A DNA stretch of 47,044 nucleotides. It comes from an uncultured Candidatus Saccharibacteria bacterium. Its GTDB lineage: Bacteria > Patescibacteriota > Minisyncoccia > Phycocordibacterales > JAACPR01. The notes beneath the pieces are model-generated. The model ran no database searches and was not told the DNA's origin. It saw only the letters and a list, made by a program, of their open reading frames with translations. Below are positions 7,386 to 47,044 of this stretch, in pieces. The stretch covers positions 1-47,044 of the forward strand of contig CAZNOT010000002.1 of assembly GCA_964574865.1 (NCBI GenBank), read 5' to 3'. Within the stretch, counting starts at the first letter, position 1. Each line of letters starts with the position of its first letter. The translations under genes and the position numbers were made by a program.

Positions 7386-7397
7386 TGAATCTCTAGG

Positions 7398-9171: not shown

Positions 9172-9177
9172 TAGAAT
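9172..9177 (+). promoter_or_regulatory. extended -10 TGcTAGAAT upstream of the receiver gene
   Basis: 23 nt before ATG 9201. Confidence 0.5.
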
Positions 9178-9200
9178 TTTGAGGCTAAAGAACGGGCAAC

Positions 9201-9638: not shown

Positions 9639-9655
9639 CGGACGAACAGCGAACT

Positions 9656-10717: not shown

Positions 10718-10737
10718 CCACGATGCGAGACTAAGCC

Positions 10738-11946
10738 ATGCTGTACCGATACCGAGTAGTCGAGACCGGCGGCGCCGAGCGCGAGGGCACCATCGAGGCC
10801 GTCACGGTTGACGTGGCTATTTCCGCGCTCCAGCGGCGCGGCTTCGTCATCGTCGAAATCAACGAAGCCGACAAGGCTGGCTCTATCTGGGAACGAAACC
10901 TCGGCTTCCTCGAGCGCATCAGCAACCGCGACGTCGTCATTCTCTCGCGCCAAATCTCGACGCTCTTCGAGGCGCAGGTCTCGGCGCTGCGCGTCTTCAA
11001 GCTGCTCGCGGGCGAGACCGAGAACCCGAAGCTCGGCCGCGTCCTCGCCGAGGTCGTCGAGGACCTCCAGGGCGGCTCGTCGATCGGCGGCGCGATGGGG
11101 AAGCACCCTGAGGTCTTCTCGACCTTCTACGCGAACATGGTTCGCGCCGGCGAGGAGTCCGGCAAGCTCCAGGAAACGTTCGTTTTCCTCGCGGACTACC
11201 TCGACCGTAACTACGAGGTGACGCAGAAGGCGAAGAACGCGCTCGTGTACCCGGCGTTCGTCATCTTCACGTTCTTCGCGGTGATGACGTTGATGATGAC
11301 CATGGTGATCCCGAAGATCTCCGCGGTGCTCCTCGAGTCCGGCCAGGAGCTGCCGCTCTACACCCGCATGGTCATCGGCTTCTCAGAGTTCCTGGTGGAC
11401 TTCCGCTACTTCATCGTGGCCGGCATCGCGTTCGGCGCCGCCGGGCTCTGGGCGTTCCGCCGGTCGATTATGGGCGCTGACTCGTTCGACCGTTTCAAAA
11501 TTTCTACCCCGTACATCGGCGATCTCTACCGCAAGCTCTACCTGTCTCGCATCTCGGACAACATGAACACGCTCCTCACCGCGGGCATCCCGATGGTGAA
11601 GTCGCTGGAGCTCACCGCGACCGTCGTCGAGAACCGCGTCTACGAGCACGCCGTGCTCGACGCGCTCGAGGCGGTGAAGGGGGGCGTCGCGCTCTCGGAC
11701 TCCTTTGGGCGGAACCCCGAGTTTCCGGGCATCCTCGTGCAGATGATCAAGGTCGGCGAAGAGACCGGTAACCTCGGCCGCGTGCTCTCGACGCTCGCGA
11801 CCTTCTACCGCCGCGAGGTGGGGAACGCCGTCGACACGCTCGTCGGCATGATCGAGCCGCTGATGATCATCCTGCTCGGCTTGGGCGTCGGCGTCGTGCT
11901 CGCCTCTGTCCTTATCCCCATCTACAACCTGTCTTCGGCGCTGTAG
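10738..11946 (+). CDS. pilC: type IV pilus platform protein PilC (GspF family)
   Basis: 402 aa with a duplicated T2SS-F domain architecture and 3 TM segments. Confidence 0.85.
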   Translation: MLYRYRVVETGGAEREGTIEAVTVDVAISALQRRGFVIVEINEADKAGSIWERNLGFLERISNRDVVILSRQISTLFEAQVSALRVFKLLAGETENPKLGRVLAEVVEDLQGGSSIGGAMGKHPEVFSTFYANMVRAGEESGKLQETFVFLADYLDRNYEVTQKAKNALVYPAFVIFTFFAVMTLMMTMVIPKISAVLLESGQELPLYTRMVIGFSEFLVDFRYFIVAGIAFGAAGLWAFRRSIMGADSFDRFKISTPYIGDLYRKLYLSRISDNMNTLLTAGIPMVKSLELTATVVENRVYEHAVLDALEAVKGGVALSDSFGRNPEFPGILVQMIKVGEETGNLGRVLSTLATFYRREVGNAVDTLVGMIEPLMIILLGLGVGVVLASVLIPIYNLSSAL

Positions 11947-12140
11947 GGCGGGAAACTCCATTCGGCGCGCAAAACGGTCTTTTGCGCCTCGGGGTACACG
12001 CGTGCACCGTCGGCTAGAAAGAACCGGTTTTTCGCACCCGGATGCCGCCCCCCGTGCCGCGGGGGGCAAAATACAGGTTCGCCCTTGATTTTTTGGGAGA
12101 GAAAGACGTCCGGAAAACTGTGCTAACCTCTGCCTCACCT

Positions 12141-13565
12141 ATGCCGGGCAAGTACCATCTGACCGTCGGCCTCGAAATTCACGCCGAGCTCAAGACGGCG
12201 ACGAAGGCGTTCGGCCGCGCGAAGAACGACCCGTTCGGCGCGGCGCTCCCGAATTCGAACGTCGACGAGATCGACCTGGGGCACCCCGGAACGCTGCCCG
12301 CGCTCAACGCCGAGGCGGTGCGCCAGGTCGTGCGCGTCGGCCTCGCGATCGGCGGCAAAATCGCCGAGTTCGCCGAGTTCGACCGCAAGCACTACTTCTA
12401 CCCGGACATCCCGAAGGGCTACCAGATCAGCCAGTACGAGCACCCGCTGGTGACGGGCGGGCAAATTGGCGCGGTCAAGATTACGCGTATCCACCTCGAG
12501 GAGGACACCGCGACCTCGAAGCACGACCGCGGCGATTTCTCGCTCGTCGATTTCAACCGCGCGGGCGTGCCGCTCATGGAGCTCGTCACGGAGGCGTGCA
12601 TTCACTCGGCGGAAGAGGCCGTCGCCTTCGCGTCCGATCTCCAGCTCCTCCTCCGCTACCTCGGCGCCTCCGAGGCGAACATGGAGCGCGGCGAGATGCG
12701 CGTCGAGGCGAACATTTCCATTTCGGATACGGCGGGGAAGCTCGGCACGAAGGTCGAGGTGAAAAACCTCAACTCGTTCCGCGCGGTTGCCGGCGCGATC
12801 GCCTACGAGGCGGCGCGCATGGAGAAACTTTTGGAATCGGGGAAGGGCGACGAAATTGTCCAGGAGACGCGCGGTTGGGACGAGGTGGGCGAGAGGACCG
12901 TGCCCCAGCGGCGCAAGGAGACCGCGGACGACTACCGCTACTTCCCGGAGCCGGATCTGCCGAAGCTGCGCCCGCACGAGCTGTTCGATCTGGGCGCGCT
13001 CCGGGCCGAGCTCCCCGAGCTGCCGTGGGCGAGGCGAGCGCGCTACCGCGCGCTCGGGCTCTCCGAGAAAGAGGCCGAGGTGCTCGTCGGCGACCTCGAT
13101 CTCGCGGTCTACTACGAGGCCGTCGCCGGCGCGCTGCCGTCCGAGAAGGCGAAGAAGCTGGCCGCGAACTACATCCTTTCCGACATCCTCGGCCTCGCGA
13201 AGAAGGCGGGCGAACCGGCGTCTAAAATCCCGGTCGCCGCGCTCGTTGAAATCATCGGGATGGTGGACTCCGCGGCCATCAACTCGCGCGTCGCCAAAGA
13301 CCTCGTCGCGTTCTATTGGGCCGACCCCGCCGCGGCCGAGCTGCCGAAGGCTAAGGTCGAGCGCGAGGGGCTCGGCATGATGGGGGAGGCCGCGCTCGCG
13401 CCGATCGTCTCGGCCGTCGTTGCCGCGCAGCCGCAGGTCGTCGCCGACTACAAAACTGGCAAGGTCGCGCTCCTCGAGTTTCTCGTGGGGCAAGCAATGA
13501 AGGAGACGAAGGGGCGCGCCGACGCGGCGGTTCTGCGCGACCTGTTCCGCGCCGCCCTCGGGTAG
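12141..13565 (+). CDS. gatB: Asp/Glu-tRNA amidotransferase subunit B
   Basis: The ORF opens at 12042, but the conserved N-terminus YHLTVGLEIHAELKT starts at ATG 12141. The GatB/YqeY tail is present. Confidence 0.9.
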   Translation: MPGKYHLTVGLEIHAELKTATKAFGRAKNDPFGAALPNSNVDEIDLGHPGTLPALNAEAVRQVVRVGLAIGGKIAEFAEFDRKHYFYPDIPKGYQISQYEHPLVTGGQIGAVKITRIHLEEDTATSKHDRGDFSLVDFNRAGVPLMELVTEACIHSAEEAVAFASDLQLLLRYLGASEANMERGEMRVEANISISDTAGKLGTKVEVKNLNSFRAVAGAIAYEAARMEKLLESGKGDEIVQETRGWDEVGERTVPQRRKETADDYRYFPEPDLPKLRPHELFDLGALRAELPELPWARRARYRALGLSEKEAEVLVGDLDLAVYYEAVAGALPSEKAKKLAANYILSDILGLAKKAGEPASKIPVAALVEIIGMVDSAAINSRVAKDLVAFYWADPAAAELPKAKVEREGLGMMGEAALAPIVSAVVAAQPQVVADYKTGKVALLEFLVGQAMKETKGRADAAVLRDLFRAALG

Positions 13566-13583: not shown

Positions 13584-13617
13584 TGAGAATTCTCACCGCC
13601 GAAATTCGGTCTTTTTT
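13584..13617 (+). terminator. weak terminator-like structures after gatB
   Basis: TGAGAATTCTCA palindrome, then a short CCGAA/TTCGG stem, then CTTTTTTG. Confidence 0.4.
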
Positions 13618-13619
13618 GT

Positions 13620-13625
13620 TAAGAT
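13620..13625 (+). promoter_or_regulatory. -10 box TAAGAT, 8 nt before ATG 13634
   Basis: Follows the gatB terminator-like T-tract. Confidence 0.5.
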
Positions 13626-13633
13626 TTCTCCGA

Positions 13634-16600
13634 ATGAGCCAGGCGTCGAAAAGACGAATCATCTTAGCGCTCACCCTCGCCGCGATCGGTTTGATCGGGC
13701 TCTTGCCTGTGGACGTTGAGGCCCGCCGTGGCTTTCCGCACTTCGTCCAGAGCGAGATTTCTGTGGGAGAAAACCTCGCGCGCATTGGCGGGGCAATCTT
13801 TGGCTCGCCCGAGCGCGGCGTCGCATCGGCCGGATCGGTCACGTCGCCCGAATGCGGCTGGTGGGACTGGCTCGTCTCTGGCTGCTCGTCCGATCCGGTC
13901 GAGCTCGTGCCCTCGGCCGCGGTCTCTGAGACCGGCGCGCCCGCGGTGAGCCGCGCCGTGGGCGGAGCCGCTCCGTCTGCCGCGCGCCCCGGCGACTACT
14001 ACGTCACCGAGAACGTCATTGAGCGCGTCGTCGTTCGCGACGAGACTGAATCTTCGGGGGCCCGCGCGCTCCTGGAGCGCCTCGGCGTCCTCGAGGCGCA
14101 GGTCGCTCGCTTCGACGGCCGCATCGACGCGATCAACGGCTACTCGCCGAGGTCGACGCGCCGCTCGCGCGCGGCCGAGCGCGAAGACACGAGCGCCTCT
14201 ATCGCCGCCGCCGTCTCGGGCGGCTCGTCCGACGCCTCGTTCGGCACGCTCTCCGTCTCCGGCGCGGCGACCTCTACCTTCGGCAACGGGCTAGACATCG
14301 CGGACGGCTGCTTTGCGATCGACGGCGTGTGCCTCGATCTCGGCGACGCCGCGGACGGAACCTTCTCGACTACTTCGGCCGCGTACTGGGAGTCGACCCA
14401 GGCGCGCTGGGCCACGACGTCATCCGACTACTGGGAGTCGACCCAGGCGCGCTGGGCCACGACGTCATCTGCGTACTGGCTCACGACGAAAACGACGGCT
14501 GACCTCGCGGAGAGCGGCAGCCTCTACTACACCGACGCGCGCGTCGCGGCCTACGTTTCCGCCTCCTCGACCATTCCGCACATCGGCGGCTCTGCCTACG
14601 GTGACGTTCTCTACTGGACTGGGACCGCGTGGTCCCAAATGGCCACCTCCACCCTCGGCATTGACGGTTCGAAGTGGGACGATGCGACGGGCGGCATCAA
14701 CTACTCGGGCGGGAACGTCGCAATCGGTAATTCAGCACCTTCAGAATTACTGACTCTTGGTTCAGCAACAGAAACTTCGGGGAACAGAAAGGCACTGAGA
14801 TTTAATGCTGGCGGCTACGCAGCTCCAGGGGTATTCAATACAAACTCTAATGGCGATAAAATTATTTTTTATCAGGGATCTGACTTTGACGGACGATTCG
14901 GCGCTTCTTCGGGCGGTGAGATTTGGTTGAAGGCGCTTTCTACTAATACCAGCAATACTGGATTTGGATCCCTTAGTTTTTACACTGGCCAAGGAGTTAC
15001 TCCGTCTCCGAATCTCAGAATGCATCTAGGTGCGACTGGCGGAGTCGCTCTCGGCGGCACGATTACTAGTGCAACAAACTACACAGGAGCTACTTTGGTG
15101 CTTAGTACAGGGGGAAATGTGGGGATAGGAGCAAGCAGCCCAGTAACAGGTTTGGAAGTAGCTAATAATGGGGTAAATATATCGGGGAATTTCAATTACA
15201 ACATGTATGTTCATAATGCTGGAGGCAACAAGGGTTTTGCATTTGGATACGATACTAGTTCGCAAACAGGTATCATTGCTCCATCGGGCGGTACTGCTGA
15301 CCTTGCGTTTTGGACGCCAAATAGCAGTGTTTGGAGTGAAAAAATACGGTTTACCGCTGCGGGTAATGTGGGAATAGGTAGCACTACCCCAACAAATAAA
15401 TTAGTGGTCCAGGCGACAAACGGCGATGTAAGTATTGGAACATTCCAATCTTCTTATCCCGGTATTGCCATCAATAACACCAATGCCGGCTCATCGTACG
15501 GAGGATTCATGCGATGGCAGAAAAATGGAACAAACCAATGGGGATACGGAATGGATTACGTGGGTAACGGAGGTCAAGATTTCTGGCTCTATAACTACGC
15601 TTCCTCTAAAGACGCACTTTATTTCTCTTCGGCAAATGGGTACACGACCGTTGCCGGGCATTCAAACGCCGCCTCACCTCTTGCGGTCAACGGTGGCGCT
15701 GCGATCGGCGCAGGGTACGTTACAACCGCCGCGCCGTCTAACGGTTTGTTGGTGCAGGGGAGTGTGGGCGTCGGCACGTCGACCCCCTGGAAAGCCTTTT
15801 CGGTCACGGGCGCCGTTGCCTTCGACGGGCTCTCCTCGATGGGCGCTTCGGACCAGTACGTCTGTATCAACCCAACGACGAAAGAGGTTACGTTCGGCGC
15901 CGTTTGCACCGCGTCCTCCGAGCGCTTCAAGCACGACATTGAGGTCCTCGGGGATTCGGACGGGCTCGCGCTCGTGCGCCAGCTCCGCCCGGTATCGTTC
16001 GCCTACAACGAGACCGGCCAGACGCGCCTCGGCTTCATCGCCGAGGACATCGACCGCATCGACCCGCGCCTCGTGTTCTACGAGTCTGACGGTACGACTC
16101 CCAAAGGCGTGCTCTACCAAGACTTCACACCCATCCTCGCGAAATCTGTTCAGGAGCTCGACGTGCGCATCGAAGGCTTGGCCGAAATGGAGCCGTGGTC
16201 AGGTGACGCCGAGCCAGACTCGTTTGCCGCGCGCGTCGTGGCGCGGATCGCCGCGTGGCTCGGCGACGCCGGGAACGGCCTCGCCGCAGTCTTCGCCGGG
16301 AAGGTTCAAACAAACGAGCTCTGCCTCGCGGGCGCGAACGGCTCGACCACCTGCATCACCCGAGATCAGCTCGAGGAGCTGCTAGGCACAGACGTGCCGC
16401 TCCCGGTGCCGGGCAATGGCCCCGACGACGGCCCGGCTCCTTCTGCGGCCGAACTTCACGGCGCGGTCGGCGAGACCGCGGCGGACTTCGAGGCTGGCGG
16501 CGCTGGCGCACCCACTGCCGACGGGTCGGACGGTGTTCCTGTCGACGTTGCGGCGGTCGGCGAATCGGCTGACGGCGCCCCAGACAGTCCCACGGCCGAG

Positions 16601-16765
16601 GGAGGCGAAAATTCTGATGAACCTACCGGCGATACCTCCGACGTTTCGGCGCCGAGCGAAAGCTCTTCCGAAAATTCGGGCGCCCATTCCTCGGGCGAAT
16701 CGTCAGAAAGTCTGTCCGAATCTTCCGGCGGAGGCGACTCATCGGACGTCGCGTCGGGCGAGTAG
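13634..16765 (+). CDS. giant secreted tail-fibre-like protein with C-terminal Peptidase_S74-type intramolecular chaperone domain and acidic Ser-rich tail
   Basis: The ORF opens at TTG 13616; ATG 13634 lies 8 nt after TAAGAT. N-terminal signal/anchor RRIILALTLAAIGLIGLLP. Repeated NVGIG..P...L.V fibre motifs. SSERFKHDIEVL...LRPVSFAYN...GFIAEDI...VLYQDF fits the endosialidase-chaperone (S74) pattern. Confidence 0.8.
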   Translation: MSQASKRRIILALTLAAIGLIGLLPVDVEARRGFPHFVQSEISVGENLARIGGAIFGSPERGVASAGSVTSPECGWWDWLVSGCSSDPVELVPSAAVSETGAPAVSRAVGGAAPSAARPGDYYVTENVIERVVVRDETESSGARALLERLGVLEAQVARFDGRIDAINGYSPRSTRRSRAAEREDTSASIAAAVSGGSSDASFGTLSVSGAATSTFGNGLDIADGCFAIDGVCLDLGDAADGTFSTTSAAYWESTQARWATTSSDYWESTQARWATTSSAYWLTTKTTADLAESGSLYYTDARVAAYVSASSTIPHIGGSAYGDVLYWTGTAWSQMATSTLGIDGSKWDDATGGINYSGGNVAIGNSAPSELLTLGSATETSGNRKALRFNAGGYAAPGVFNTNSNGDKIIFYQGSDFDGRFGASSGGEIWLKALSTNTSNTGFGSLSFYTGQGVTPSPNLRMHLGATGGVALGGTITSATNYTGATLVLSTGGNVGIGASSPVTGLEVANNGVNISGNFNYNMYVHNAGGNKGFAFGYDTSSQTGIIAPSGGTADLAFWTPNSSVWSEKIRFTAAGNVGIGSTTPTNKLVVQATNGDVSIGTFQSSYPGIAINNTNAGSSYGGFMRWQKNGTNQWGYGMDYVGNGGQDFWLYNYASSKDALYFSSANGYTTVAGHSNAASPLAVNGGAAIGAGYVTTAAPSNGLLVQGSVGVGTSTPWKAFSVTGAVAFDGLSSMGASDQYVCINPTTKEVTFGAVCTASSERFKHDIEVLGDSDGLALVRQLRPVSFAYNETGQTRLGFIAEDIDRIDPRLVFYESDGTTPKGVLYQDFTPILAKSVQELDVRIEGLAEMEPWSGDAEPDSFAARVVARIAAWLGDAGNGLAAVFAGKVQTNELCLAGANGSTTCITRDQLEELLGTDVPLPVPGNGPDDGPAPSAAELHGAVGETAADFEAGGAGAPTADGSDGVPVDVAAVGESADGAPDSPTAEGGENSDEPTGDTSDVSAPSESSSENSGAHSSGESSESLSESSGGGDSSDVASGE
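14384..14479 (+). repeat. 45-bp in-frame tandem duplication (2 copies plus the start of a third)
   Basis: TACTGGGAGTCGACCCAGGCGCGCTGGGCCACGACGTCATC(C/T)G.. repeats at 14384 and 14429, and TACTGG recurs at 14474. It encodes YWESTQARWATTSS(D/A). Confidence 0.9.
14725..15660 (+). other. low-GC cassette inside the giant gene (compositional island, in frame)
   Basis: Hand counts of G+C per 60 nt: 21 at 14821-14880 and 27 at 15121-15180. Flanking lines give 39 (14281-14340) and 40 (16021-16080). Boundaries are approximate. Confidence 0.8.
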
Positions 16766-19925: not shown

Positions 19926-19949
19926 GCCACGGTACAATTGTACCGTGGC
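19926..19949. promoter_or_regulatory. 24-bp perfect palindrome (candidate operator) spanning the -10 box and start codon of the 1261-aa gene
   Basis: GCCACGGTACAA|TTGTACCGTGGC, verified base by base. It contains TACAAT (19933..19938) and GTG 19945. Confidence 0.6.
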
Positions 19950-22900
19950 GTATTTTGGGTTTTTTCTGAGAAGGCGCGCGCGCGTTCTCGTCGCGGCGTG
20001 CCTCGCCGCGCTCTCTTTTGTCTCGCCCGCTCGCGCGGCGTTCTCTCAGGCGATTAGCTACCAAGGCAAGCTCGCCGACTCGAGCGGCATCGCGGTCGCC
20101 GACGGCGACTACAACATGGAGTTCAAGCTCTACGACGCGGTTTCGAACGGCAACCTCCTGTGGACCGAGACGCGGAGCGGCGCGAACAAGGTGACCGTGA
20201 CCGACGGTCTTTTCAGCGTGCAACTCGGCTCGATCGCCGCGCTCTCGAGCGTCAATTTCAATCAGCCGTTGTGGCTCTCGGTGAACATTGGCGGCACCGG
20301 CACCCCGAGCTGGGACGGCGAGATGACGCCGAGGAAGCCTATGGGTTCGGTGCCCGCCGCGTTCGTGGCCGGCGTGGCCTACGGCCTCGACGCGACCTAC
20401 GCCACGTCGACCTACGCCACATCGACGCGCATCTACGCGGGAGCCTCGCTCAACGTCGCCACCACATCGTCCGCCGCCGCGCTCGCCGTGCAGGGGAGCG
20501 CGCTCCTCTCGGGCAACCTCGGTCTCGCGAACCTGACCGCGACCGGCACGGCGACCGTCGGCGCGCTCTCGGTCGGCGCGCTCTCGGGGCCGCTGCAGGC
20601 GATTGCCGGCGTCGTATCGGCTACGTCCACGATGTCCGTCGGCTACGGCGGCACCGGCCTCTCGACGGCACCGACCTACGGGCAGGTGCTCGTGGGTAAC
20701 GCCTCGGGAGGCTACACGCTCACCGCGACCTCCTCCCTCGGCATCGGCGGCGGGAGCGTGACGGCAGACTCGCTCAACTTCACGGACATGAGCGACACGA
20801 TGGCGCTCGACGCCGGCACGTCGATCGGCTTCGGCGCGAGCAGCTACGGTCTCACGTTCACGAACGACGGCAGCGGCAACGAGACGCACAACTTGTCTTC
20901 GACGGGCGACTTCGTGATCCAGGACAACGGCTCGACGGTGTTCTCGGTGGACGATACGGGGAAGATTACCGCGGACAACCACCTGTTCATTGGAGCGCAG
21001 GCCGACTCCGCGTCGACCGGCGATGCCGCGTACACGATCTTGAACTCGGCTGCGGGCACCTTCGGCGCGCAGACCGCGCGCGACAAAATCTCGTCGATCG
21101 CCGTGTACGAGGGCAAGCTCTTCGTCGCCGTCGCCGAGACGGACGCAGCTGGCATCTACCGCTGGGATGGGGGCACGACCTGGACTTTGGTGACCTCGAG
21201 CACGCTGGGGCGCGTCATCTCGGGCGACGCGACGGACGCTGACGCGTTCGTGATGACCGTTTTCAACGGCGAGCTGTGGGTCGGCAGCCAGAACGGCGCC
21301 GCGACGGCTGGCGTGTACAAGAGTTCGACCGTCGATACGGCGTCCGCGGGCGACAACTTCACGTTGGTCAACTCTGCGCGCGGCACGATCAACGCCGCTG
21401 CGCAGACCGGCATTTCGGACATGGTTGTCTACAACGGCCAGCTCATCGTCGCGACGCAGAAGGCGAACGCGGCCGAAATTGCCCGCTACGAGGGCGGCAC
21501 GACGTTCACCCGCATCAACGCGACCGTCGGTAAATCAGCGGCCGAGACCACCGCCGACAAGGACGCGTTCGTCCTAGCCATCTGCAACAACGTCCTGTGG
21601 TCGGGGTCGATTTCCGGGGCGGCGACCGCGATCGTGGCGAGCTACCAAGGTAACGGGACCACCTGGATCAACACCACGGTCACGGCGACGGGCGGCAGTT
21701 TTGGCGCGGAGACGTCCATATCTGACATCGACAGCCTAGCCTGCTACAACGGCTCGCTGTACATGACGGCCTCGAAGACAGCCGGCAACGCCGCGGCCGT
21801 CTACTACTACAAGGCGTCAGCGGCGCCGGTCGCGAACGTCGCGGCCAACTGGGTGCGCGTGAACCCGGCGGTCGGCAAAATGCTGGCGGCCGACTCGGCG
21901 GTCATCGACAAGTTCATCCTGAAGACGTACCGCGGTCGCCTCTACGCTGGCTCGCAGACTGCGACCGGCGACGGTGCGGGCGCGCTCTTCGAATACTCGG
22001 GCGTGCCGCTCGCGGACTGGCCGCTCATGACGACCGGCGCGCGCGGCACGTTCGGGTCCCAGACTGCCGTCGACAGTATTTCTGCCCTCCAGGACTTCAA
22101 CGGCACTCTCTACGTCGGTACCGACGATCTCACCGCGGGCGTCGGCTCGGTCTACACGTGGGGCAAACTCTTCCAAAACTCGTTCGGGCTGAAGTTCGAG
22201 GCGACCGACGGCGCGTACGGCACGATGAGCTTCGTGGGGAACGTGCAGACTGGCGATTCTGGCCGTGGCGGCAGCTTCCTCTTGAGTAACTCAATCATGA
22301 TGACCTCTGGCGCTTACGACGTCGCCGAGGACTACCCGACGCGCGACGAGGCGCTCGCGCCGATGGACCTCGTGAGCCTCGACGCCCTCGAGCAGGGCAT
22401 GGTCCGCCGCTCTTCTGGGCGAGGGGACAAGGGCGTCATTGGCATCTACTCCGAGGCCCCAGCCCTACGGCTGGCGCAGCCCGGGGAGGCAATCGATGGC
22501 ACTCGGGCGATTCCGGTCGCTCTCGCCGGCCGCGTGCCGGTGCGCGTCACGCTCGACGGCGGGCCGATCGCGATCGGCGACTACCTCACCGCGTCGCCTG
22601 AACCTGGCGCGGCGATGCGCGCGTCGCGGCCAGGGCGCGTCGTCGGCCGCGCGATTTCCGGCTACAGTGGCGCCGAGGGTGAAGAGGCGAAGGTGACCGT
22701 CTTCGTCGGCACCGAGACAATCGGCTGGGACGAGATTGCTATCGCCGAGGTGCAGTCGGCCGAGGCCGCGGCCGTCGATTCCGTCTCGCGGTTCTTCGCC
22801 GACGTATCGACCGCGACCGAAGACCTCGCGCTCGCCTCGATCGCCGGGGCGGACGACCTGAGTCAAGTCATCGCCGAGAAGCTCGTCGCCGTGACCGCGA

Positions 22901-23730
22901 GCGTAAAAAAGATGTTCGTGGAGGCGCTGACCGTGCTGCCTGGCGGTAGCCTCGCGGTGCCGAGTGGCGAGAATCAGATTTCTGGCAGCGCCGTGCTGCC
23001 CGCGGGTGCGATCGGGCTCGACGTGGGCAACGAGGCCGTGCGCCTCACCTCGAAGGTTTTTGTGACGCCGATTTCCTCGCTCTCCGCGCCGCTCGTGGTG
23101 ACGCAGAAGACCGATGGTATCGGCTTCCGCGTAGAAATTGCGACGCCGCAGCCGGCGGATGTTTCGTTCGATTGGCTCATCGTGCAGACGTACCGTCCGG
23201 CGGGCGGAGCCGAAACCGTCGCCGCGCCGATCTTCGCGAGCACGTCGATCGCGTCGGAAGAGGGCGTCACCGTGCTCGACGCCGGCGAGGACGTGGTCGT
23301 CGCGCCCGCGGATGAGCCTGCTGGCGAGCCCGCCAATGACGCGCCGGCCACGGGCGGCGCGGCCGAAGATTCTGCCGGAGGGAGTACGGGCGACTCCGGA
23401 TCGGGCGCGACAGAACCTGAGCCTGAATCTGATTCCGCCGGCTCTGGCGAGGAAGCTGGTTCCGGAGATTCTGCCGGTGACAGCTCCGGCGGAGAGGCCG
23501 ACGCCGGATCGGCTGCCGCGTCGGACGACGGATCTTCGTCCGGTGACGGTGGCGGCGACGATGGCTCTTCTTCGGGCGATTCGGGCGGGAGTGATTCCGG
23601 CGGTAGCTCGGCGGGAGATTCCGGCGGCGGGGGAGATTCTTCCTCCGGCGATTCGGGCGGCGGATCATCGGGCGACTCCGGCGGCGGCGACTCCGGCGGC
23701 GGCGATTCCGGATCGTCGTCCGGTGAGTAG
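19945..23730 (+). CDS. giant secreted protein: N-terminal fibre module, 7-bladed beta-propeller-like repeats, C-terminal beta domains, Asp/Ser/Gly tail
   Basis: 1261 aa with a GTG start. Signal peptide ...SPARA|AF. Seven spaced motifs: YEGKLFVAV, FNGELWVGS, YNGQLIVAT, CNNVLWSGS, YNGSLYMTA, YRGRLYAGS, FNGTLYVGT. The tail is (SGDSGGG)n. Confidence 0.75.
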   Translation: MAYFGFFLRRRARVLVAACLAALSFVSPARAAFSQAISYQGKLADSSGIAVADGDYNMEFKLYDAVSNGNLLWTETRSGANKVTVTDGLFSVQLGSIAALSSVNFNQPLWLSVNIGGTGTPSWDGEMTPRKPMGSVPAAFVAGVAYGLDATYATSTYATSTRIYAGASLNVATTSSAAALAVQGSALLSGNLGLANLTATGTATVGALSVGALSGPLQAIAGVVSATSTMSVGYGGTGLSTAPTYGQVLVGNASGGYTLTATSSLGIGGGSVTADSLNFTDMSDTMALDAGTSIGFGASSYGLTFTNDGSGNETHNLSSTGDFVIQDNGSTVFSVDDTGKITADNHLFIGAQADSASTGDAAYTILNSAAGTFGAQTARDKISSIAVYEGKLFVAVAETDAAGIYRWDGGTTWTLVTSSTLGRVISGDATDADAFVMTVFNGELWVGSQNGAATAGVYKSSTVDTASAGDNFTLVNSARGTINAAAQTGISDMVVYNGQLIVATQKANAAEIARYEGGTTFTRINATVGKSAAETTADKDAFVLAICNNVLWSGSISGAATAIVASYQGNGTTWINTTVTATGGSFGAETSISDIDSLACYNGSLYMTASKTAGNAAAVYYYKASAAPVANVAANWVRVNPAVGKMLAADSAVIDKFILKTYRGRLYAGSQTATGDGAGALFEYSGVPLADWPLMTTGARGTFGSQTAVDSISALQDFNGTLYVGTDDLTAGVGSVYTWGKLFQNSFGLKFEATDGAYGTMSFVGNVQTGDSGRGGSFLLSNSIMMTSGAYDVAEDYPTRDEALAPMDLVSLDALEQGMVRRSSGRGDKGVIGIYSEAPALRLAQPGEAIDGTRAIPVALAGRVPVRVTLDGGPIAIGDYLTASPEPGAAMRASRPGRVVGRAISGYSGAEGEEAKVTVFVGTETIGWDEIAIAEVQSAEAAAVDSVSRFFADVSTATEDLALASIAGADDLSQVIAEKLVAVTASVKKMFVEALTVLPGGSLAVPSGENQISGSAVLPAGAIGLDVGNEAVRLTSKVFVTPISSLSAPLVVTQKTDGIGFRVEIATPQPADVSFDWLIVQTYRPAGGAETVAAPIFASTSIASEEGVTVLDAGEDVVVAPADEPAGEPANDAPATGGAAEDSAGGSTGDSGSGATEPEPESDSAGSGEEAGSGDSAGDSSGGEADAGSAAASDDGSSSGDGGGDDGSSSGDSGGSDSGGSSAGDSGGGGDSSSGDSGGGSSGDSGGGDSGGGDSGSSSGE
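23560..23727 (+). repeat. coding low-complexity repeat (GGC GGC GA(C/T) TCC GG-type units)
   Basis: Imperfect reiteration encoding SGDSGGSDSGGSSAGDSGGGGDSSSGDSGGGSSGDSGGGDSGGGDSGSSSGE. Confidence 0.8.
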
Positions 23731-23788: not shown

Positions 23789-25753
23789 ATGAACCGGGTG
23801 ACAGCATCGGCGGCGACGATAAAAACGCGACTCAAGTCGCGGCTGCTCCGCGCGTCTGCCGCGCTCGCCGCGCTCGCGGTCGGGTGGTGGATTCTCGTTG
23901 CCGCGGGGGTCGGCGAACTGCCCGGAAATTTTCGCTACAGCGCGACCACCGTCTCCTACGATGACTGGTTCGACGAGGCGAGCGGCACGTTCGCCGGCCC
24001 AGTTAAGTCGAGCGGAGAGCTGGTCTTTGAGCGGGTGAGTTCCGGCGGTTCGGGCGCCGGGCAGGGCGTCCCGGTCCGCGCCGTTTTCCGGCTCCTCAGC
24101 GCCGACACGAAGCAGCCGTCGCTCGTCATTGAGCGACGCTACGCCATCGACCCTGAGACGTGGGGGCACGTCTCGTCCGTCGAGGCCGACCGCAACCGCG
24201 ACGGGCACCTCTTCGCGCCGCCGGGCATCCGGGCGGGGGAGAGCTTCACCTACTGGCACCCGAACTACGACGCGCCCGCGCGGATGGACTTCGCGGGCAC
24301 GGAGAACGTTCTGGGCCTCGAGACCTACCGCTACGTCGCGGCCTTCCCCGACGGGAAGGTCGATCAGACCGCGGCTCTCGGGCACGTTTCCGGCGTCGGA
24401 AAAACTCGGGGCGTCGTGCTCGAGCCGCACCTCGAAATTTGGATTGAGCCCCAGACCGGCTGGCTCATCAAGTACGAGGATCACGCCCTCGCGTCGTTCT
24501 ACGATCTCGAGACCGGCGAGGTGCAGTCGCCGTGGAACCGCTTCCGGAACCGCTACACCGCGACCGCGGTCGAGGGCCACGTAGAGGCAGCTAGGCTGGA
24601 GGCGCTCAGGCGCGCCGCGCTCTGCTGGGGCATCCCGCTCGCGCTCCTCCTCGCCGCGCTCCTCCTCGCCGCGCTCCACGTCGTTTCGCGCCGCCCCGAT
24701 CGTCGGGCGCTGGTGGCTCGCTGGCTCCCGCGGGGCGTGGTCGCGGTTATCCTCGGCGGCACCGTCTTTTCCTGGATCGCCCTCCAGGGTTCGCTCGACC
24801 GGCGCTCTCAGATTCACCTTGCGGCTGACGCCGCGCGGATCTCGGATGCTCTCGCGAACCGAATGTCCGTCTACTCGAACACGCTGCTCTCGGCGCGCGG
24901 ACTGCTCTACTCGTCCGAGGAGGTGACCCGCGAGGAGTGGCACGCCTTCACGGAGAGCCTGAACATTCGGCGCAGCTACCCGGGGCTGCAGGCGATCAAC
25001 TGCCTGCAAATTGTCTCGGGGAGCCGCCTGGGCGCGTTCGAGGCGTCCGTGCGCGCCGGGGGTGTTCCCGATTACTCCGTGTCCCCGGCTAAACCCGCGC
25101 GAGAAATTTACGCGCCGATTGTCTTCACCGCACCGGCGGACGAGCGGAACCTCCGGGGTTTGGGGTACGACGGCCTCTCCGATCCCGTCCGGCGCGAGTT
25201 CCTCGAGCGCGCGCGGGACACCGACGCTGTGGCGCTCTCGGCCAAGATCCAGCTCGTCACGGAGAACGGGCGCGACGTGCAGCCCGGGTTCGCCGCGTGC
25301 CTTCCCACGTATGAAGCCGGCGACACGTCGACGGTCGAGGGTCGCCGTGACGCCCTCGCGGGCTACGTCTGCGCGATATTCCGCGGCCGCAACTTCGGCG
25401 AGGACGTCATCTCCGCCGGCGACTACGAGCTCCGGTTCGAAATTTTTGACGGCGACAACGCGACGTCTGAAACATCTAAAATCTTCGATAGCGAGGACGG
25501 CGCCCCGCTCGCCTCGGGTGTCTCGATCACCCAGACGGTCGATGTCTTCGGTCGCCCGTGGACGCTACGGTTTTCGGGGCCGTCCGGGTACGGGCTCTCG
25601 CTGTTCGAGCGGGTCGCGCCGTCGGGGCTGCTCGGCTTCGGCCTCTTCTCGGGGTTCTTGGTGTACGGGGCGCTGACCGCGCTGTCGGGCTTCCGACCCA
25701 GGCGAGAGGAGGACTTTTTGGACGCACCGGCGCTCCTCGCCCCCGGAGACTGA
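23789..25753 (+). CDS. four-TM membrane protein with DUF3068(PorA)-like and CHASE extracytoplasmic domains, no cytoplasmic output domain
   Basis: 654 aa. TM helices near residues 20-45, 275-297, 310-330 and 612-632. The CHASE pattern is EEWHAFTESLNIRRSYPGLQAI...IYAPIVFTAPADERNLRGLGYDGLSDPVRREFLERARDT. The C-terminal tail is only about 22 aa. Confidence 0.6.
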   Translation: MNRVTASAATIKTRLKSRLLRASAALAALAVGWWILVAAGVGELPGNFRYSATTVSYDDWFDEASGTFAGPVKSSGELVFERVSSGGSGAGQGVPVRAVFRLLSADTKQPSLVIERRYAIDPETWGHVSSVEADRNRDGHLFAPPGIRAGESFTYWHPNYDAPARMDFAGTENVLGLETYRYVAAFPDGKVDQTAALGHVSGVGKTRGVVLEPHLEIWIEPQTGWLIKYEDHALASFYDLETGEVQSPWNRFRNRYTATAVEGHVEAARLEALRRAALCWGIPLALLLAALLLAALHVVSRRPDRRALVARWLPRGVVAVILGGTVFSWIALQGSLDRRSQIHLAADAARISDALANRMSVYSNTLLSARGLLYSSEEVTREEWHAFTESLNIRRSYPGLQAINCLQIVSGSRLGAFEASVRAGGVPDYSVSPAKPAREIYAPIVFTAPADERNLRGLGYDGLSDPVRREFLERARDTDAVALSAKIQLVTENGRDVQPGFAACLPTYEAGDTSTVEGRRDALAGYVCAIFRGRNFGEDVISAGDYELRFEIFDGDNATSETSKIFDSEDGAPLASGVSITQTVDVFGRPWTLRFSGPSGYGLSLFERVAPSGLLGFGLFSGFLVYGALTALSGFRPRREEDFLDAPALLAPGD

Positions 25754-34966: not shown

Positions 34967-35620
34967 ATGGTTAAACTCGCATACGAAGCCCGCGACGCGA
35001 AGGCGTCCCTTGCCGCCCTCCGTAAGGGTGGCAAGATTCCCGTGGTCCTATACGGCCGCAAGCACGAGGCCGAGATGGGTCAGGTTGACCTGAAGGCCTT
35101 CGGCAAGGTCTTCGCCAAGGTGGGCGAGTCTCAGATTGTCTCGCTCGAGGGTCCTTCGGGCGAGCACGAGGCGCTCGTTCACGAGCTCCAGCTCGACCCG
35201 GTCCGCGATTTTCCTGTCCACGTCGACTTCCTCGTCATCGAGAAGGGGCGCAAGGTGGAGGTGTCCGTGCCTCTCAATTTCATCGGTTCCGCGCCGGCCG
35301 AGAAAGACCTCCACGGCAACATCATTAAGACCATGCACGAGGTCGAGATTGAGGCTATGCCGAAGGATTTGCCGGCGCACCTCGACGTCGACCTCTCGCT
35401 CCTCGTCGATTTCAACTCGCAGATCCACGCTCGCGACATCGCGCTCCCGGCCGGCGTCGTCCTCAAGACCGATCCGGACGAGGTCGTCGCAACCGCCGAA
35501 GAGGCTGTCGAGGAGGATCTCTCGGTTCCGGTCGAGGGTCCGGACCTCGCCGCCATCGCCGTCGAAGAGAAGGGCAAAAAGGAGGAGGAGGGCGCCGCGT
35601 CCGCCGAGCCGGCCGCCTAA
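34967..35620 (+). CDS. rplY: ribosomal protein L25 / Ctc form
   Basis: The ATG 34967 N-terminus RKGGKIPVVLYG, plus the Ctc-type C-terminal extension with an acidic tail. Confidence 0.85.
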   Translation: MVKLAYEARDAKASLAALRKGGKIPVVLYGRKHEAEMGQVDLKAFGKVFAKVGESQIVSLEGPSGEHEALVHELQLDPVRDFPVHVDFLVIEKGRKVEVSVPLNFIGSAPAEKDLHGNIIKTMHEVEIEAMPKDLPAHLDVDLSLLVDFNSQIHARDIALPAGVVLKTDPDEVVATAEEAVEEDLSVPVEGPDLAAIAVEEKGKKEEEGAASAEPAA

Positions 35621-35640
35621 GCCGATCTGCGTTTTCTTTC

Positions 35641-35675
35641 GAGGGCCGCGGCGCGAGCCGCGGCCCTCTTTTTTG
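35641..35675 (+). terminator. rho-independent terminator
   Basis: GAGGGCCGCGGC-GCGA-GCCGCGGCCCTC perfect stem followed by TTTTTTG. Confidence 0.9.
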
Positions 35676-35715
35676 CTCGGGCAGAGCGACATCGGATCCG
35701 CTGATCGCTCTTTGG

Positions 35716-35721
35716 TACAAT
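35716..35721 (+). promoter_or_regulatory. -10 box TACAAT, 8 nt before ATG 35730
   Basis: TGgTACAAT, extended form. Confidence 0.55.
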
Positions 35722-35729
35722 GCCCCGGC

Positions 35730-37073
35730 ATGCGCATCCTCGGTTTCTTTTTTGCCGCGCTGGTTCTCGCGGCGGTCGTGGCGCCGCTCCCGGGGGCGCT
35801 CGCCGCGACCGATCTCGAGGCGCGCGAGAAGGAGCTTCGCCAGGAGCTCGAGCGAATCGAGCGTGAGCAGAAGGAGCTCCAGGCTCAGCTCGACGCGCAG
35901 CGCGGCGAGACGGCGTCGTACCAGCGTGACGTCAACATCCTGACCGCCGAGATCAAGCAGGCGCAGCTGAAAATCGATGCGAAGAACATCGAGATCAAGC
36001 GCCTCGGCAAGGATATCGACCTCAAGTCGGCGACGGTGGCCGAGCTCTCGCAGAAGCTCGCTCAGAGTCAGGCCGACATCGGGCAGCTCGTGCGCAAGAT
36101 GAGCCAAATGGACGACCTATCGCTCGCGGAGATGGTTGCCTCGGACGACGCCGTCTCCGATTTCCTCGGCGAGTACGACTCCTACGTATCCATCCAGTCC
36201 TCCCTCGGCGAGCTCATCGACGAGGTGCGCTCGGTGCGCGGCGAGACCGAAGAGGAGAAGGCTGCGCTCACCGAGCGCCAGCAGAGGGAGCTCGACCTGA
36301 AGGCCGAAATTGAGGCCGAGCGTCGCGTCATTGCCGGCAAGGAGGCTGAGAAGAGGCAGCTCCTCGCGGGCTCGAAGGCAACCGAGGCCACGTACCAGAG
36401 CGCTGTGGCCGAAAAGCAGCGCGAGGCCGCGGCTATCCGCGCGGCGCTCTTCCAGCTGCGGGACTCGAAGGGGATCTCGTTCGGCGACGCCGTCGAGTAC
36501 GCCGAGGCGGCTTCCGAGGTTACCGGCGTGCGGCCCGCCTTCATCCTCGCGATCCTCAAGCAGGAGACCGATCTCGGCAAGAACGTCGGTACCTGCAATC
36601 GCGAGGGCGATCCTGAAGAGAAGAGCTGGCGGAGCATTATGCCGGGCCCGGGCGATAACTCGTCCCGCGATGACCAGACCATTTTCCTTCAAATTACCGA
36701 AGATCTCGGGCTCGATCCTGACACGACGCCGCTCTCGTGCCCGTGGGGCAACGGCTGGGGCGGGGCGATGGGGCCGTCGCAGTTCATTCCGACCACGTGG
36801 GCTTCCTACGCGGGCCGCATTGCGGCCGCGGTCGGCGTGAAGACGGCGAACCCCTGGAACCCGCAGCACGCCTTCATGGCGACGGCGATTTACATGTCCG
36901 ACCTCGGCGCCGGCGCCCAGACCTACACCGCCGAGCGCACCGCGGCGCTGCGCTACTACGCCGGTGGCAACTGGAGCCTCCCGCAGAACGCGTTCTACGG
37001 GAACTCGGTGATGGCGCACGCGGAGGGTTTCCAGTCTCAGCTCGACTTCCTCGACGATGCGGACGCCGATTGA
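35730..37073 (+). CDS. secreted coiled-coil protein with C-terminal lytic murein transglycosylase (SLT_2/MltB-like) domain
   Basis: Starts at ATG 35730, with the signal peptide MRILGFFFAALVLAAVVAPLPGALA. A coiled coil of about 230 aa. ILKQETDLG...GAMGPSQFIPTTW...RYYAG is the transglycosylase pattern. Confidence 0.75.
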   Translation: MRILGFFFAALVLAAVVAPLPGALAATDLEAREKELRQELERIEREQKELQAQLDAQRGETASYQRDVNILTAEIKQAQLKIDAKNIEIKRLGKDIDLKSATVAELSQKLAQSQADIGQLVRKMSQMDDLSLAEMVASDDAVSDFLGEYDSYVSIQSSLGELIDEVRSVRGETEEEKAALTERQQRELDLKAEIEAERRVIAGKEAEKRQLLAGSKATEATYQSAVAEKQREAAAIRAALFQLRDSKGISFGDAVEYAEAASEVTGVRPAFILAILKQETDLGKNVGTCNREGDPEEKSWRSIMPGPGDNSSRDDQTIFLQITEDLGLDPDTTPLSCPWGNGWGGAMGPSQFIPTTWASYAGRIAAAVGVKTANPWNPQHAFMATAIYMSDLGAGAQTYTAERTAALRYYAGGNWSLPQNAFYGNSVMAHAEGFQSQLDFLDDADAD

Positions 37074-44726: not shown

Positions 44727-45530
44727 ATGAGCGAGACGACTCACCCCGGGCACCCGCACCCCGTCTCGCGCGTCCTGGACGAGCTCGTCTCCATTTTCGA
44801 GAGCCTCGGCTTCTCGGTCGCCTCGGGGCCGGAGCTCGAGAACGGCTTCCACAACTTTGACGCGCTCAACGTGCCGAAGGACCACCCGTCCCGCGACATG
44901 CAGGACACCTTCTGGCTCAAGAAGCCCGAGGGGGCGTCGCCGTTCTCGGGCGACCCAGCCGACGCGCCCGCCGAGCTCCTCCGCACGCACACCTCGAGCG
45001 TGCAGGTTCGCTACATGCGGCAGCTCGTCGCCGAGTGCCGCGCGGCGGGGAAGGAGGTGCCACCGTTCCGTATCGTGGCGCCCGGCAAGGTGTACCGCAA
45101 CGAGGCCACCGACCGGACGCACGAGGTGCAGTTCCACCAGCTAGAGGGTCTGTGCGTCGGCCCCGGCGTCTCGCTCGCGAACCTGAAGTGGACTTTGGCC
45201 CGGTTCGCCGAGGGGCTCTTCGGCTCGGGCACCGCGGTGCGCCTGCGCCCGGCGTTCTTCCCGTTCGTCGAGCCGGGTGTGGAGGTAGACGCCTCGTGCG
45301 TTGCCTGCGCCCAGGCGGGCTGCCCGACCTGCAAGGGTACCGGCTGGGTCGAGATTCTGGGCGCCGGCATGGTGCACCCGAAGGTGCTCTCGGCGGTTGG
45401 CATCGACCCGCGGAAGTGCTCGGGCTTCGCGTTCGGCATGGGCGTCGACCGTGTGGCGATGATGCGGTACGGCGTCGACGACGTGCGCCACTTCTACTCG
45501 GGCGATCTGCGCGTGGTCGACCAGTTTTAA
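44727..45530 (+). CDS. pheS: phenylalanine-tRNA ligase alpha subunit (lacks the N-terminal coiled-coil arm)
   Basis: [30 protein letters not shown], the FPFVEP motif, the Cys4 cluster [22 protein letters not shown], and the ending DLRVVDQF. Confidence 0.92.
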
Positions 45531-45533: not shown

Positions 45534-47044
45534 ATGAGAATCCCGTACTCCTGGCTCTCAGAAATGTTCGCGGCGCCGCTCCCGGCTCCGAAGGACTTGG
45601 CGCACCTCCTCACGATGCGCTCTTTCGAGATTGAGGGCATCGAGGGCGAGGGTGATGCCTCAGTCATCGAAGCCGACGTGCTGCCGAACCGCGCGCACGA
45701 CTGTCTGGGCCTCCGCTACGTCGCGCGCGAGGTGTCCGCGATTACCGGCGTGGCCCTCAAGAACGAGCCGGAGCCGGCGCTGCCCGAGGGCGCCGCGCCG
45801 TCCGTTTCTATCTCCGTCGAAGACGCGCGCTGCCGCCGCTACGTGATGGTTGAGGTCTCCGGCGTCTCCGTGTCCGAGTCCCCGGTGTGGCTCAAGGAGA
45901 AAATCGCCGCGATGGGGCAGCGCTCGATCAACTCGGTCGTGGACGCCTCGAACTTGGTGCTCTTCCTCGAGAACCAGCCGACGCACGCGTTCGACGCGGA
46001 CAAGGTGAAGGGGGCGATCCGCGTGCGTGCCTCGGCGGAGGGCGAGCGGATGACGACGCTCGACGGCCGCGACCTCGCGCTCGATCCGGGCACGCTCGTC
46101 ATCGCCGACGACGAGGGGCCGCTCGCGATCGCCGGCGTGAAGGGCGGCAACCGCTCGGGCGTCTCGGCCTCGACGACGCGCGTCTACCTCGAGTCCGCGA
46201 ACTTCGATCCGGTCACCGTCCGCAAGGCCGGCCAGCGCTACGACCTGCGCACCGATTCCTCGAAGCGCTTCGAGGTCGAGATTACGCCCGAGCTCGCCGC
46301 GCGCGGCATGGCCCGCCTGGTGGACACGCTGCGCGAGGTGGCGGCGGGGGACGGGTTCGCCGTCTCCGGCGCCCTCGATCACTACCCGCGCCGCGCGCAT
46401 CCGTACCGGACGGGCGTTTCGGCCTCGGAGGCCTCCGCGCTCCTCGGCCGCCCGGTCACCTTGGCCGAGGCGAAGCGCGCGCTCGAATCTTTGGGCTGCG
46501 AGACCCGCGAGCTCGCGAACCCGGCCGCCCGCATCCTCGAGGTCGCCGCCGCGGCGGTCGGCAAGCCGTACAGGTACGGCGCCTCGGTGCTCTACGACGC
46601 GCCGAGCGCGTTCGACTGCTCGTCGCTCGCGGCCTACGCGTGCGCCGAGGCGGGGCTCTCCGCGCCGCGCATCACGGTCGACCAGTTCGCGTGGGGCCGC
46701 GAGGTTTCTGAAGCCGAGCTCCAGCCGGGCGACCTCGTCTTCTCGTGCGTCGGCGGCGCGGTGCGGCGCGCGCCGCAGCGTGCGACCTTGGAGTACGCGC
46801 GCGGCTCGAAAGTTGCGACGCCGGACGACTGCGGCGTAGACCACTGCGGCGTTTACGCCGGCGACGGCGAGGTGATTCACGCTACTTCGAACGGTGGCGA
46901 CATTGTGAAGCGCGAGAAACTCGCCGAGAGCGGGCAGTTCAAGAAGGTTGTCGGCTACCGCCGCGCCGCGCTCCGCGACGAGCCGCGGCTGGTGGCGACC
47001 GTGCCGCCCGAGCGCCTCGACCTGCGCGCGCCGGAAGATTTGAT
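45534..47044 (+). CDS. pheT: phenylalanine-tRNA ligase beta subunit, 3'-truncated by the window edge; lacks the B2 OB domain and carries an inserted NlpC/P60 domain
   Basis: Not in the ORF track because there is no stop in the window; hand-translated and open to 47044. MRIPYSWLSEMF, LPNRAHDCLGLRYVAREV, B3/B4 (QRSINSVVDASNLVLF), B5 (LLGRPVTLAEAKRALESLGCE), and VPPERLDLRAPEDL at the end. Confidence 0.88.
   Translation, partial: MRIPYSWLSEMFAAPLPAPKDLAHLLTMRSFEIEGIEGEGDASVIEADVLPNRAHDCLGLRYVAREVSAITGVALKNEPEPALPEGAAPSVSISVEDARCRRYVMVEVSGVSVSESPVWLKEKIAAMGQRSINSVVDASNLVLFLENQPTHAFDADKVKGAIRVRASAEGERMTTLDGRDLALDPGTLVIADDEGPLAIAGVKGGNRSGVSASTTRVYLESANFDPVTVRKAGQRYDLRTDSSKRFEVEITPELAARGMARLVDTLREVAAGDGFAVSGALDHYPRRAHPYRTGVSASEASALLGRPVTLAEAKRALESLGCETRELANPAARILEVAAAAVGKPYRYGASVLYDAPSAFDCSSLAAYACAEAGLSAPRITVDQFAWGREVSEAELQPGDLVFSCVGGAVRRAPQRATLEYARGSKVATPDDCGVDHCGVYAGDGEVIHATSNGGDIVKREKLAESGQFKKVVGYRRAALRDEPRLVATVPPERLDLRAPEDL

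Follow-up and report, generated by a model that had tools for sequence, protein, structure and literature searches.

Aminoacyl-tRNA synthetases are known to gain accessory domains, and a complete, conserved cysteine peptidase nested within a bacterial synthetase subunit was not found described. Here we report a predicted case in pheT, the gene for the beta subunit of phenylalanyl-tRNA synthetase (PheRS), at the right end of a 47,044-nucleotide stretch of DNA (the window; positions 1 to 47,044 of contig CAZNOT010000002.1, assembly GCA_964574865.1) from an uncultured Candidatus Saccharibacteria bacterium. The inserted element is a domain of the NlpC/P60 (C40) family, of which YkfC is a cytoplasmic member and a precedent for muropeptide breakdown. 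The (alpha-beta)2 PheRS enzymes of Thermus thermophilus (1pys, 2iy5) and Escherichia coli (3pco) share with the fused PheT a B1-like domain, the B3/4, B5, B6/7 (CLM) and B8 (FDX-ACB) domains and the pheS-pheT operon, whereas the fused PheT lacks B2 and has its B5 domain split by a 161-residue enzyme domain. A 2010 review places heterotetrameric PheRS in all known prokaryotes and gives mitochondrial PheRS as the sole monomeric class II case (PMC3275996). A cytoplasmic thiol amidase of the papain superfamily (CHAP) is found on a synthetase polypeptide in glutathionylspermidine synthetase/amidase (GspSA) and trypanothione synthetase-amidase (PMC10318531).

The NlpC/P60 insert of PheT

The pheT reading frame begins with an ATG at 45534 and its first 503 codons, with no stop, extend to the window end (45534..47044; all features in this section are on the forward strand), so the gene continues past the window; full-length orthologues have 772-836 residues. 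It starts 3 nt after the end of pheS (44727..45530), and the same pheS-pheT order is found at loci L085 and L086. The nearest full-length orthologue (P0001; 793 residues, 92% identical and with numbering equal to that of the window PheT) served as a full-length stand-in for HMMER alignment to E. coli PheT (3pco_B, 7n8y_B). The N-terminus is B1-like and aligns to E. coli PheT from residue 6, the B3/4 editing domain lies at residues 100-270 (45831..46343; Pfam PF03483, E 2.6e-56), and PheT domains alone flank the insert; CLM and FDX-ACB are present in the full-length orthologues P0001 and P0027. Among NCBIfam models the window PheT matches those for PheT and NlpC/P60 endopeptidases alone, with 241.9 bits to the bacterial PheT equivalog TIGR00472 over profile positions 157-441. 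The equivalog cut-off of 402.65 bits divides a single family, with P0001 below it (320.6 bits) and P0027 above it (440.9 bits). On sequence grounds the open reading frame (ORF) is the housekeeping PheRS beta subunit of a Parcubacteria/Paceibacteria bacterium, and it has no export signal or cell-wall-binding modules, unlike the usual NlpC/P60 cell-wall hydrolases. An earlier reading made from the window's sequence only (the sequence-only reading) had proposed a cytoplasmic PheT with an embedded domain, and the housekeeping PheT without a signal peptide agrees with this.

The insert comprises 161 residues (aa 327-487; 46512..46994) and is defined by Pfam PF00877, AlphaFold2 and Foldseek. PF00877 matches the window PheT at E 6.4e-15 and 55.5 bits (gathering cut-off 23), and the insert alone scores 60 bits. 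Ahead of it only positions 3-33 of the 67-position B5 profile are matched, at residues 295-325 (B5 N-terminal half; 46416..46511), and in P0001 profile positions 35-64 fall at residues 481-510 with CLM beginning at about residue 521. The segment VPPERLDLRAPEDL, which starts at 46995, is interrupted by the window end at 47044 and continues IEEIGR... in P0001, forms the C-terminal half of B5 and pairs with E. coli PheT residues from 446 on, and the B6/7 module begins about 30 residues on. P0001 residues 44-326 pair with E. coli PheT 157-439 and residues 488-570 with 446-529, and the ~161 residues between stand in place of ~6 residues of the B5 hairpin. When the insert is removed in silico a single contiguous B5 match is obtained, with 38 bits in P0001 and 69.1 bits in P0027, from Yonathbacteria (cut-off 28.6). 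Modelled by AlphaFold2 together with its B5 flanks, the insert is bordered by a predicted B5 strand at each end (E2-6 and E164-168), which fits a domain nested in a hairpin. The sequence-only reading was right that the domain is inserted in frame in the PheRS beta subunit but had placed it between B5 and the start of B6; the alignment and the in-silico deletion put it within the B5 hairpin itself.

The AlphaFold2 model of the insert has a predicted local distance difference test score (pLDDT) of 92.1 and a predicted template modelling score (pTM) of 0.88. The predicted fold is papain-like (alpha+beta) and superposable on solved C40 enzymes: Foldseek returns 62 PDB matches at E <= 1e-3, and among the 50 listed all are NlpC/P60 domains. 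The best is Acd24020 (7cfl; E 7e-12, template modelling (TM) score 0.87-0.90), and the top matches include 4hpe, 2hbw, 2evr, a Trichomonas NlpC, MepS, CwlO, LytE and the YkfC-type 3h41; every one of the nearest solved folds is a peptidoglycan DL-endopeptidase or a gamma-D-glutamyl-L-diamino-acid endopeptidase. Residues were counted in a MAFFT alignment of 121 sequences, the window protein and 120 orthologues. Cys362 in the FDCSS motif (46617..46619) and His437 in the DHxGxY motif (46842..46844), the predicted catalytic pair, are present in all 121, and His449, the third triad residue, in the IHA motif (46878..46880), in 118. The remaining P60 signature residues are similarly retained: Y346 in 116, D361 in 117, S363 in 118, G374 and P378 in 121, R379 in 116, D383 in 120, Q384 in 114, and D400 and F403 in 121. 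Between the GDLVF strand and the catalytic His is a family-specific extension of ~30 residues (46746..46838) that splits the Pfam match, with E420 in 101/121 and G424 in 116/121; it is also present in the free-standing proteins described below.

Conservation extends to a broader sample comprising 213 proteins, each 700 residues or longer, of which ~205 are PheT-type. The Cys-His dyad is retained in ~98% of these ~205 representatives, and Cys is changed to Ser in just two (P0206, P0257). The first His gives way to Leu in P0231 and to Tyr in P0259, the only two such proteins in this broader sample, and about twelve proteins have Y, N, D, Q or G as the third triad residue. The ratio of nonsynonymous to synonymous substitution rates (dN/dS) across the insert is 0.29 and 0.22 against the two nearest relatives, and the insert is evidently under purifying selection. 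We judge it to be a genuine NlpC/P60 domain that is probably catalytically competent, as far as the profile, the predicted fold and the conserved residues can tell. The sequence-only reading had named an NlpC/P60 signature with a Cys-His-His triad and had given all three catalytic codons exactly as above. It had also staked the domain on a profile match and on catalytic residues conserved in orthologous inserts; the match lies above the cut-off, and the residues are conserved.

When the insert was scanned with Pfam and NCBIfam only NlpC/P60-type families were found, plus LRAT and YaeF below threshold. Membership of the LRAT / H-RAS-like acyltransferase family (PF04970) is rejected at 15.2-16.5 bits for the window protein and 20.4 for a free-standing relative (cut-off 24.3), and the LRAT similarity is confined to the His-containing segment. 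Synonymous divergence between the window (45534-47042) and its closest long relative, L085, is 0.18 over codons 1-326 and 0.62 over the insert, a contrast that suggests a recombination mosaic inside pheT.

The second alteration of PheT is the loss of the B2 OB-fold. Its 115 residues (E. coli ~42-156) have no counterpart, aa 44 of P0001 aligning to E. coli PheT 157, as the sequence-only reading had claimed; HMMER alignment to 3pco_B and 7n8y_B places the deletion junction at 45657..45668. B2 is missing in 120/120 orthologues, and all 120 have a PNR motif at about aa 50. The alpha subunit is short as well: PheS has 267 residues, identified as an ORF with 291.6 bits to TIGR00468 (cut-off 237.45), and the match is limited to profile positions 65-322. 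Since it begins only at position 65, the N-terminal coiled-coil that touches tRNA in T. thermophilus is absent, and with B2 two tRNA-contacting or tRNA-like-binding elements are gone.

Distribution, free-standing modules and a C39-like neighbour

All 120 best database homologues, each representing a cluster at 90% identity, carry B3/4, NlpC/P60 and B5, down to 41% identity, and ~85 further cluster representatives have the same architecture. All but two of the 120 (118/120) are 753-838 residues long and bear FDX-ACB. Their source names include Yonath-, Campbell- and Lloydbacteria, Paceibacterota and Parcubacteria, and the architecture is drawn from NCBI, JGI, ENA and Logan assemblies, complete genomes included. 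With [YF]DAPxxFDCS as the single exact motif, a scan that took one genome from each GTDB species confirmed 118 species, among them the complete genomes CP011215.1 (Campbellbacteria) and OY970290.1 and metagenome-assembled genomes named Terry-, Nomura-, Taylor- and Vogelbacteria and Minisyncoccia. The sequence-only reading had looked to relatives for the same insertion, and these two surveys found it. When the insert by itself was searched exhaustively against a set of 1.84 billion cluster representatives, 732 matched below 1e-10, and the best 150 of these are mostly ~780-810-residue proteins matched at about residues 330-490. We regard the fusion as a clade-wide trait of the Parcubacteria/Paceibacteria, which make up a major portion of bacterial diversity and have hardly any cultured members. 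Outside PheT, the insert is best matched by P0121 (1183 residues), with about nine tandem NlpC/P60-like domains in which the catalytic Cys is replaced by Ser, Ala or Gly, and the similar multi-repeat proteins P0126, P0140, P0169 and P0200.

The fusion is masked in current annotation. NCBI names for the PheT orthologues P0037, P0050, P0096, P0025 and P0066 are 'C40 family peptidase' or 'PheT-related protein', and because of such names, together with scores below the equivalog cut-off as in P0001, the PheRS beta subunit can look missing in metabolic reconstructions. An internal start for the module was also considered and rejected, because the fused genes lack a conserved Met where B5 begins; separate expression from within pheT is thus unlikely.

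The search with the insert also yielded complete proteins of 199-233 residues consisting of a B5 half, an NlpC/P60 domain and a second B5 half. Their triad and ~30-residue extension are intact, and the second B5 half is degenerate in its C-terminal helix. The ORFs are at L081 (6001-6669), L087 (5001-5681), L088 (4258-4938), L089 (3900-4565), L084 (6001-6600), L090 (846-1505), L091 (1606-2286) and L070 (1211-1975), and the loci are syntenic with the window (rpsB, tsf, a glycosyltransferase family 2 (GT2) gene, and so on to gyrB). These ORFs appear to be relics of pheT. The position of pheS is occupied in relic loci by a gene for a 379-389-residue protein with a class II PheRS core and FDX-ACB (L081 4862-6001; L087 3856-5004; L088 3113-4261; L089 2761-3903; L091 435-1580; L070 108-1253). 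The best solved structure for this protein is human mitochondrial PheRS (E 1.5e-62, compared with ~1e-34 for bacterial alpha subunits). It scores 235.7 bits to TIGR00469 pheS_mito (cut-off 258.35) and 230.6 bits to 'PheS-related mystery ligase SrmL', just under that model's cut-off too; a literature search for the name 'SrmL' found unrelated acronyms only.

A relic stands in the syntenic pheT position beside such a monomeric PheRS-like gene at seven distinct loci (L081, standing for L081-83, L087, L088, L089, L091, L070 and the P0162 contig), and in four of them its ORF overlaps the PheRS gene by 1-4 nt; usually C39_2 and gyrB follow. On the P0162 contig the relic and the PheRS-like gene lie side by side but are divergent. 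At L084 there is no adjoining PheRS gene, and at L090 the upstream gene is without identity; in both, C39_2 lies 3' of the relic. With B1, B3/4, B6/7 and B8 lost and the module kept, it very probably has a selectable function without need of the beta subunit, and these lineages amount to a natural deletion experiment that offers a small, soluble, stand-alone module. In a neighbour-joining tree the free-standing modules are scattered among the PheT-embedded ones, which hints at repeated origins; the tree has no support values and is not relied on.

What follows pheT beyond the window can be judged from L085, whose PheT is 87% identical to the window's and which shares the synteny AAA_28, GT2, PEGA-domain protein, pheS, pheT. 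Next after pheT come a gene for a 186-residue Peptidase_C39_2 protein (L085 10721-11281) and then gyrB. A hidden Markov model built from four C39_2-like proteins was applied to loci L001-L080, counting as informative those with at least 700 nt after the pheT stop. A C39_2-like ORF of about 175-200 residues lies 3' of pheT on the same strand in 55/71 informative loci, ~40 of them abutting or overlapping pheT; it is lacking in 16/71, and in relic loci L087 and L088. The proteins score 51-63 bits to PF13529 (cut-off 24), a papain-type Gln-Cys-His-Asp tetrad (Q8, C22, H137, D153) is conserved in 61 sequences, and there is no signal peptide. A family search gave 269 matches, of which the 120 listed are all single-domain proteins of ~170-235 residues with source names that are all Parcubacteria, Paceibacteria, Minisyncoccia or Patescibacteria. 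A C39_2 sequence search against the PDB returned noise only. The AlphaFold2 model (pLDDT 96.7) finds as best folds the C39 double-glycine peptidase domains of LahT, ComA and PCAT1, with further matches to papain-like toxins and, more distantly, to a phytochelatin-synthase-like gamma-glutamyl peptidase and a pseudomurein isopeptidase; these matches are weak (TM 0.5-0.8, 13-19% identity) and do not fix the substrate.

Possible functions of the module

The NlpC/P60 module in PheT very probably has an undescribed function of its own. Our leading proposal, which we put forward tentatively, is that it is an autonomous cytoplasmic thiol amidase carried by PheT, with muropeptide breakdown as the most plausible role. 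PheT would be a mere carrier, the module probably having been fixed after insertion in a surface hairpin that tolerates it, within a protein that is essential and constitutively expressed, and the module may share a pathway with the downstream C39-like peptidase. In a small peptide, the target of Cys362 would be the gamma-D-glutamyl-diamino-acid amide bond or a comparable isopeptide bond, with His437 as the general base and His449 orienting His437; this chemistry is likely because of the fold relatives and the retained motif residues. The substrates would be peptidoglycan stem peptides entering the cytoplasm, degraded for salvage of D-Glu and diamino acid, and if so the module would give biosynthetically poor ultrasmall bacteria a route to recover both.

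Several points weigh against this proposal. The substrate is a guess from fold relatives, and no other gene of muropeptide recycling (ldcA, mpl, ampG, opp) was seen beside the locus, the neighbours being a GT2 glycosyltransferase, a PEGA-domain protein and gyrB. The adjacency of C39_2 could be inherited synteny instead of functional coupling. The coupling of relics to PheRS genes, with their 1-4 nt overlaps at four loci, and the presence of both B5 halves would also fit a function involving PheRS.

An unlikely but credible alternative is that the module is an autonomous cytoplasmic cysteine peptidase with non-peptidoglycan substrates, which together with the C39-like enzyme processes or degrades proteins or imported oligopeptides, for instance by leader-peptide-like cleavage, removal of a protein modifier or amino-acid scavenging. 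Both proteins are cytoplasmic, peptidoglycan-recycling genes are not seen nearby, and the nearest folds of the partner (LahT, ComA, PCAT1, papain-like toxins, a phytochelatin-synthase-like enzyme) suit such substrates. However, the NlpC/P60 domain falls among DL-endopeptidases and shares the motif residues of that group, and the partner's fold matches are weak and include the pseudomurein isopeptidase.

It is rather unlikely that the module takes part in PheRS-linked chemistry, in which the thiol would attack the ester of a (mis)acylated tRNA(Phe) such as Tyr-, m-Tyr-, D-Phe- or N-blocked Phe-tRNA, for hydrolytic proofreading or LRAT-type thioester transfer. The host of the domain is the very enzyme that produces Phe-tRNA, the relic stands beside a monomeric PheRS at seven loci after B3/4 has been lost, the B5 half-segments that it retains might dock on PheRS, and there is the weak, sub-threshold LRAT similarity near the catalytic His (15-20 bits). 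The canonical editing site of the fused enzymes, though, is intact. By residue count on the printed alignment, H151, E220 and T240 align to H265, E334 and T354 of E. coli PheT and are present in 121/121, 113/121 and 113/121 sequences, respectively, and position 242 is Ser or Ala. With these native residues conserved there is no sign of a decayed site needing replacement, and compensation for a degraded editing site is ruled out. The insert falls in no deacylase or editing family, and its close fold relatives are all peptidoglycan amidases whose P60 substrate-motif residues it keeps. In L084 the module is not next to any PheRS gene yet is beside C39_2; the C-terminal B5 helix is degenerate in the relics; and to our knowledge mitochondrial-type PheRS has no surface on which a beta subunit could dock. 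The added deacylase or editing activity suggested in the sequence-only reading is thus not supported, given the intact B3/4 residues, the lack of family membership and a module that outlives B1, B3/4, B6/7 and B8; moonlighting, which that reading gave as the alternative, fits better.

One elaboration of the tRNA chemistry, which we think quite unlikely, has the Cys taking the (mis-)aminoacyl group from a tRNA ester formed within a few nanometres of it, either for hydrolysis or for thioester transfer to a peptide or cell-wall precursor, with the relic as a trans-acting partner of the editing-less monomeric PheRS; the coupling of relic and PheRS genes would then be explained. The hydrolysis version, if true, would be a papain-fold proofreading site, unknown in any synthetase, and the transfer version an aminoacyl-transferase built into the synthetase that produces its donor.

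A non-catalytic structural or binding role (for tRNA, protein or a ligand), with the triad kept by inertia, is very improbable. It could compensate for the lost B2 and alpha coiled-coil, both of which are missing in the clade; non-catalytic NlpC/P60 domains exist, such as RipD (NCBIfam NF033743 match), and a few lineages have Cys to Ser or third-residue changes. Inertia, however, would not predict that Cys and His stay in ~98% of proteins with overall identity falling to 41%, nor that the other residues of the active-site motifs stay with them, and the module persists where no heterotetrameric PheRS remains to be stabilised. That the fusion is an assembly chimera, a frameshift artefact or a decaying pseudogene has hardly any chance of being true and is refuted by the comparative data: the window does end within the gene with its 3' part out of view, but no stop interrupts the frame across the insert, dN/dS stays far under 1, and the architecture recurs across independent assemblies in 120/120 best homologues and ~85 further representatives, contrary to the misassembly or frameshift that the sequence-only reading had raised against itself.

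Elsewhere in the window, a type IV pilus set occupies 4380-11946, with genes for a PilM-like protein (4380-5483), a PilB-type ATPase (7398-9110), a PilT-type ATPase (9656-10717) and a PilC-type platform protein (10738-11946), followed by gatB (12042-13565). A 1049-residue ORF (13616-16765) has as its sole domain a Peptidase_S74 intramolecular chaperone, as in tail-fibre or endosialidase-like proteins, and a 1261-residue ORF (19945-23730) has zero Pfam matches. Further along are a 654-residue protein with a PorA-like region and a CHASE sensor domain (23789-25753) and a 645-residue protein with an SLT_2 lytic transglycosylase domain (35136-37073).

Comparison with known systems

In the literature the PheT-NlpC/P60 fusion, its C39 partner and a bacterial monomeric PheRS were not found described, in a full-text search that is thin on subscription journals and in which absence is no proof. 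The C40 DL-endopeptidases (Clostridioides difficile Acd24020, E. coli MepS/Spr, Bacillus subtilis CwlO and LytE) have the same fold and the same Cys-His-His triad as the insert and share the motifs G.PY, DCS, PR..DQ, GDLVF, H.G.Y and IHA. They are secreted proteins or lipoproteins, usually with LysM, SH3b or coiled-coil segments, whereas the insert has no signal peptide and is nested in a cytoplasmic synthetase subunit, and canonical NlpC/P60 domains do not have the ~30-residue segment before the catalytic His. The YkfC-type enzymes (Bacillus cereus 3h41; Anabaena/Nostoc PCP 2hbw and 2evr), which have the NlpC/P60 fold and are among the top fold matches, act on free murein peptides, not on the wall as such, and are a precedent for muropeptide catabolism. 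Whereas their substrate groove owes its shape to SH3b domains, the insert is partnered by B5 of PheT, and no ykfA/B/D-like neighbours were seen.

The GspSA-type enzymes are end-to-end fusions with both activities acting on one metabolite, in contrast to the insert, which is nested in a hairpin and has no evident substrate link to Phe-tRNA synthesis. Editing and trans-editing deacylases (PheT B3/4, YbaK/ProX, AlaX, DTD) are unrelated to the insert in fold and mechanism and gave no profile match. The proteins encoded beside the relics have the class II core and FDX-ACB of human mitochondrial PheRS (3cmq, 8p8x), but unlike it they come from bacterial contigs, where their genes lie between GT2 and gyrB. 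Such a mitochondrial-type monomeric PheRS-like protein in bacteria bears on the origin of mitochondrial PheRS. The PheT insertion thus appears to bring a known peptidase family and a known synthetase into a new, conserved and nested combination with a partner gene of its own.

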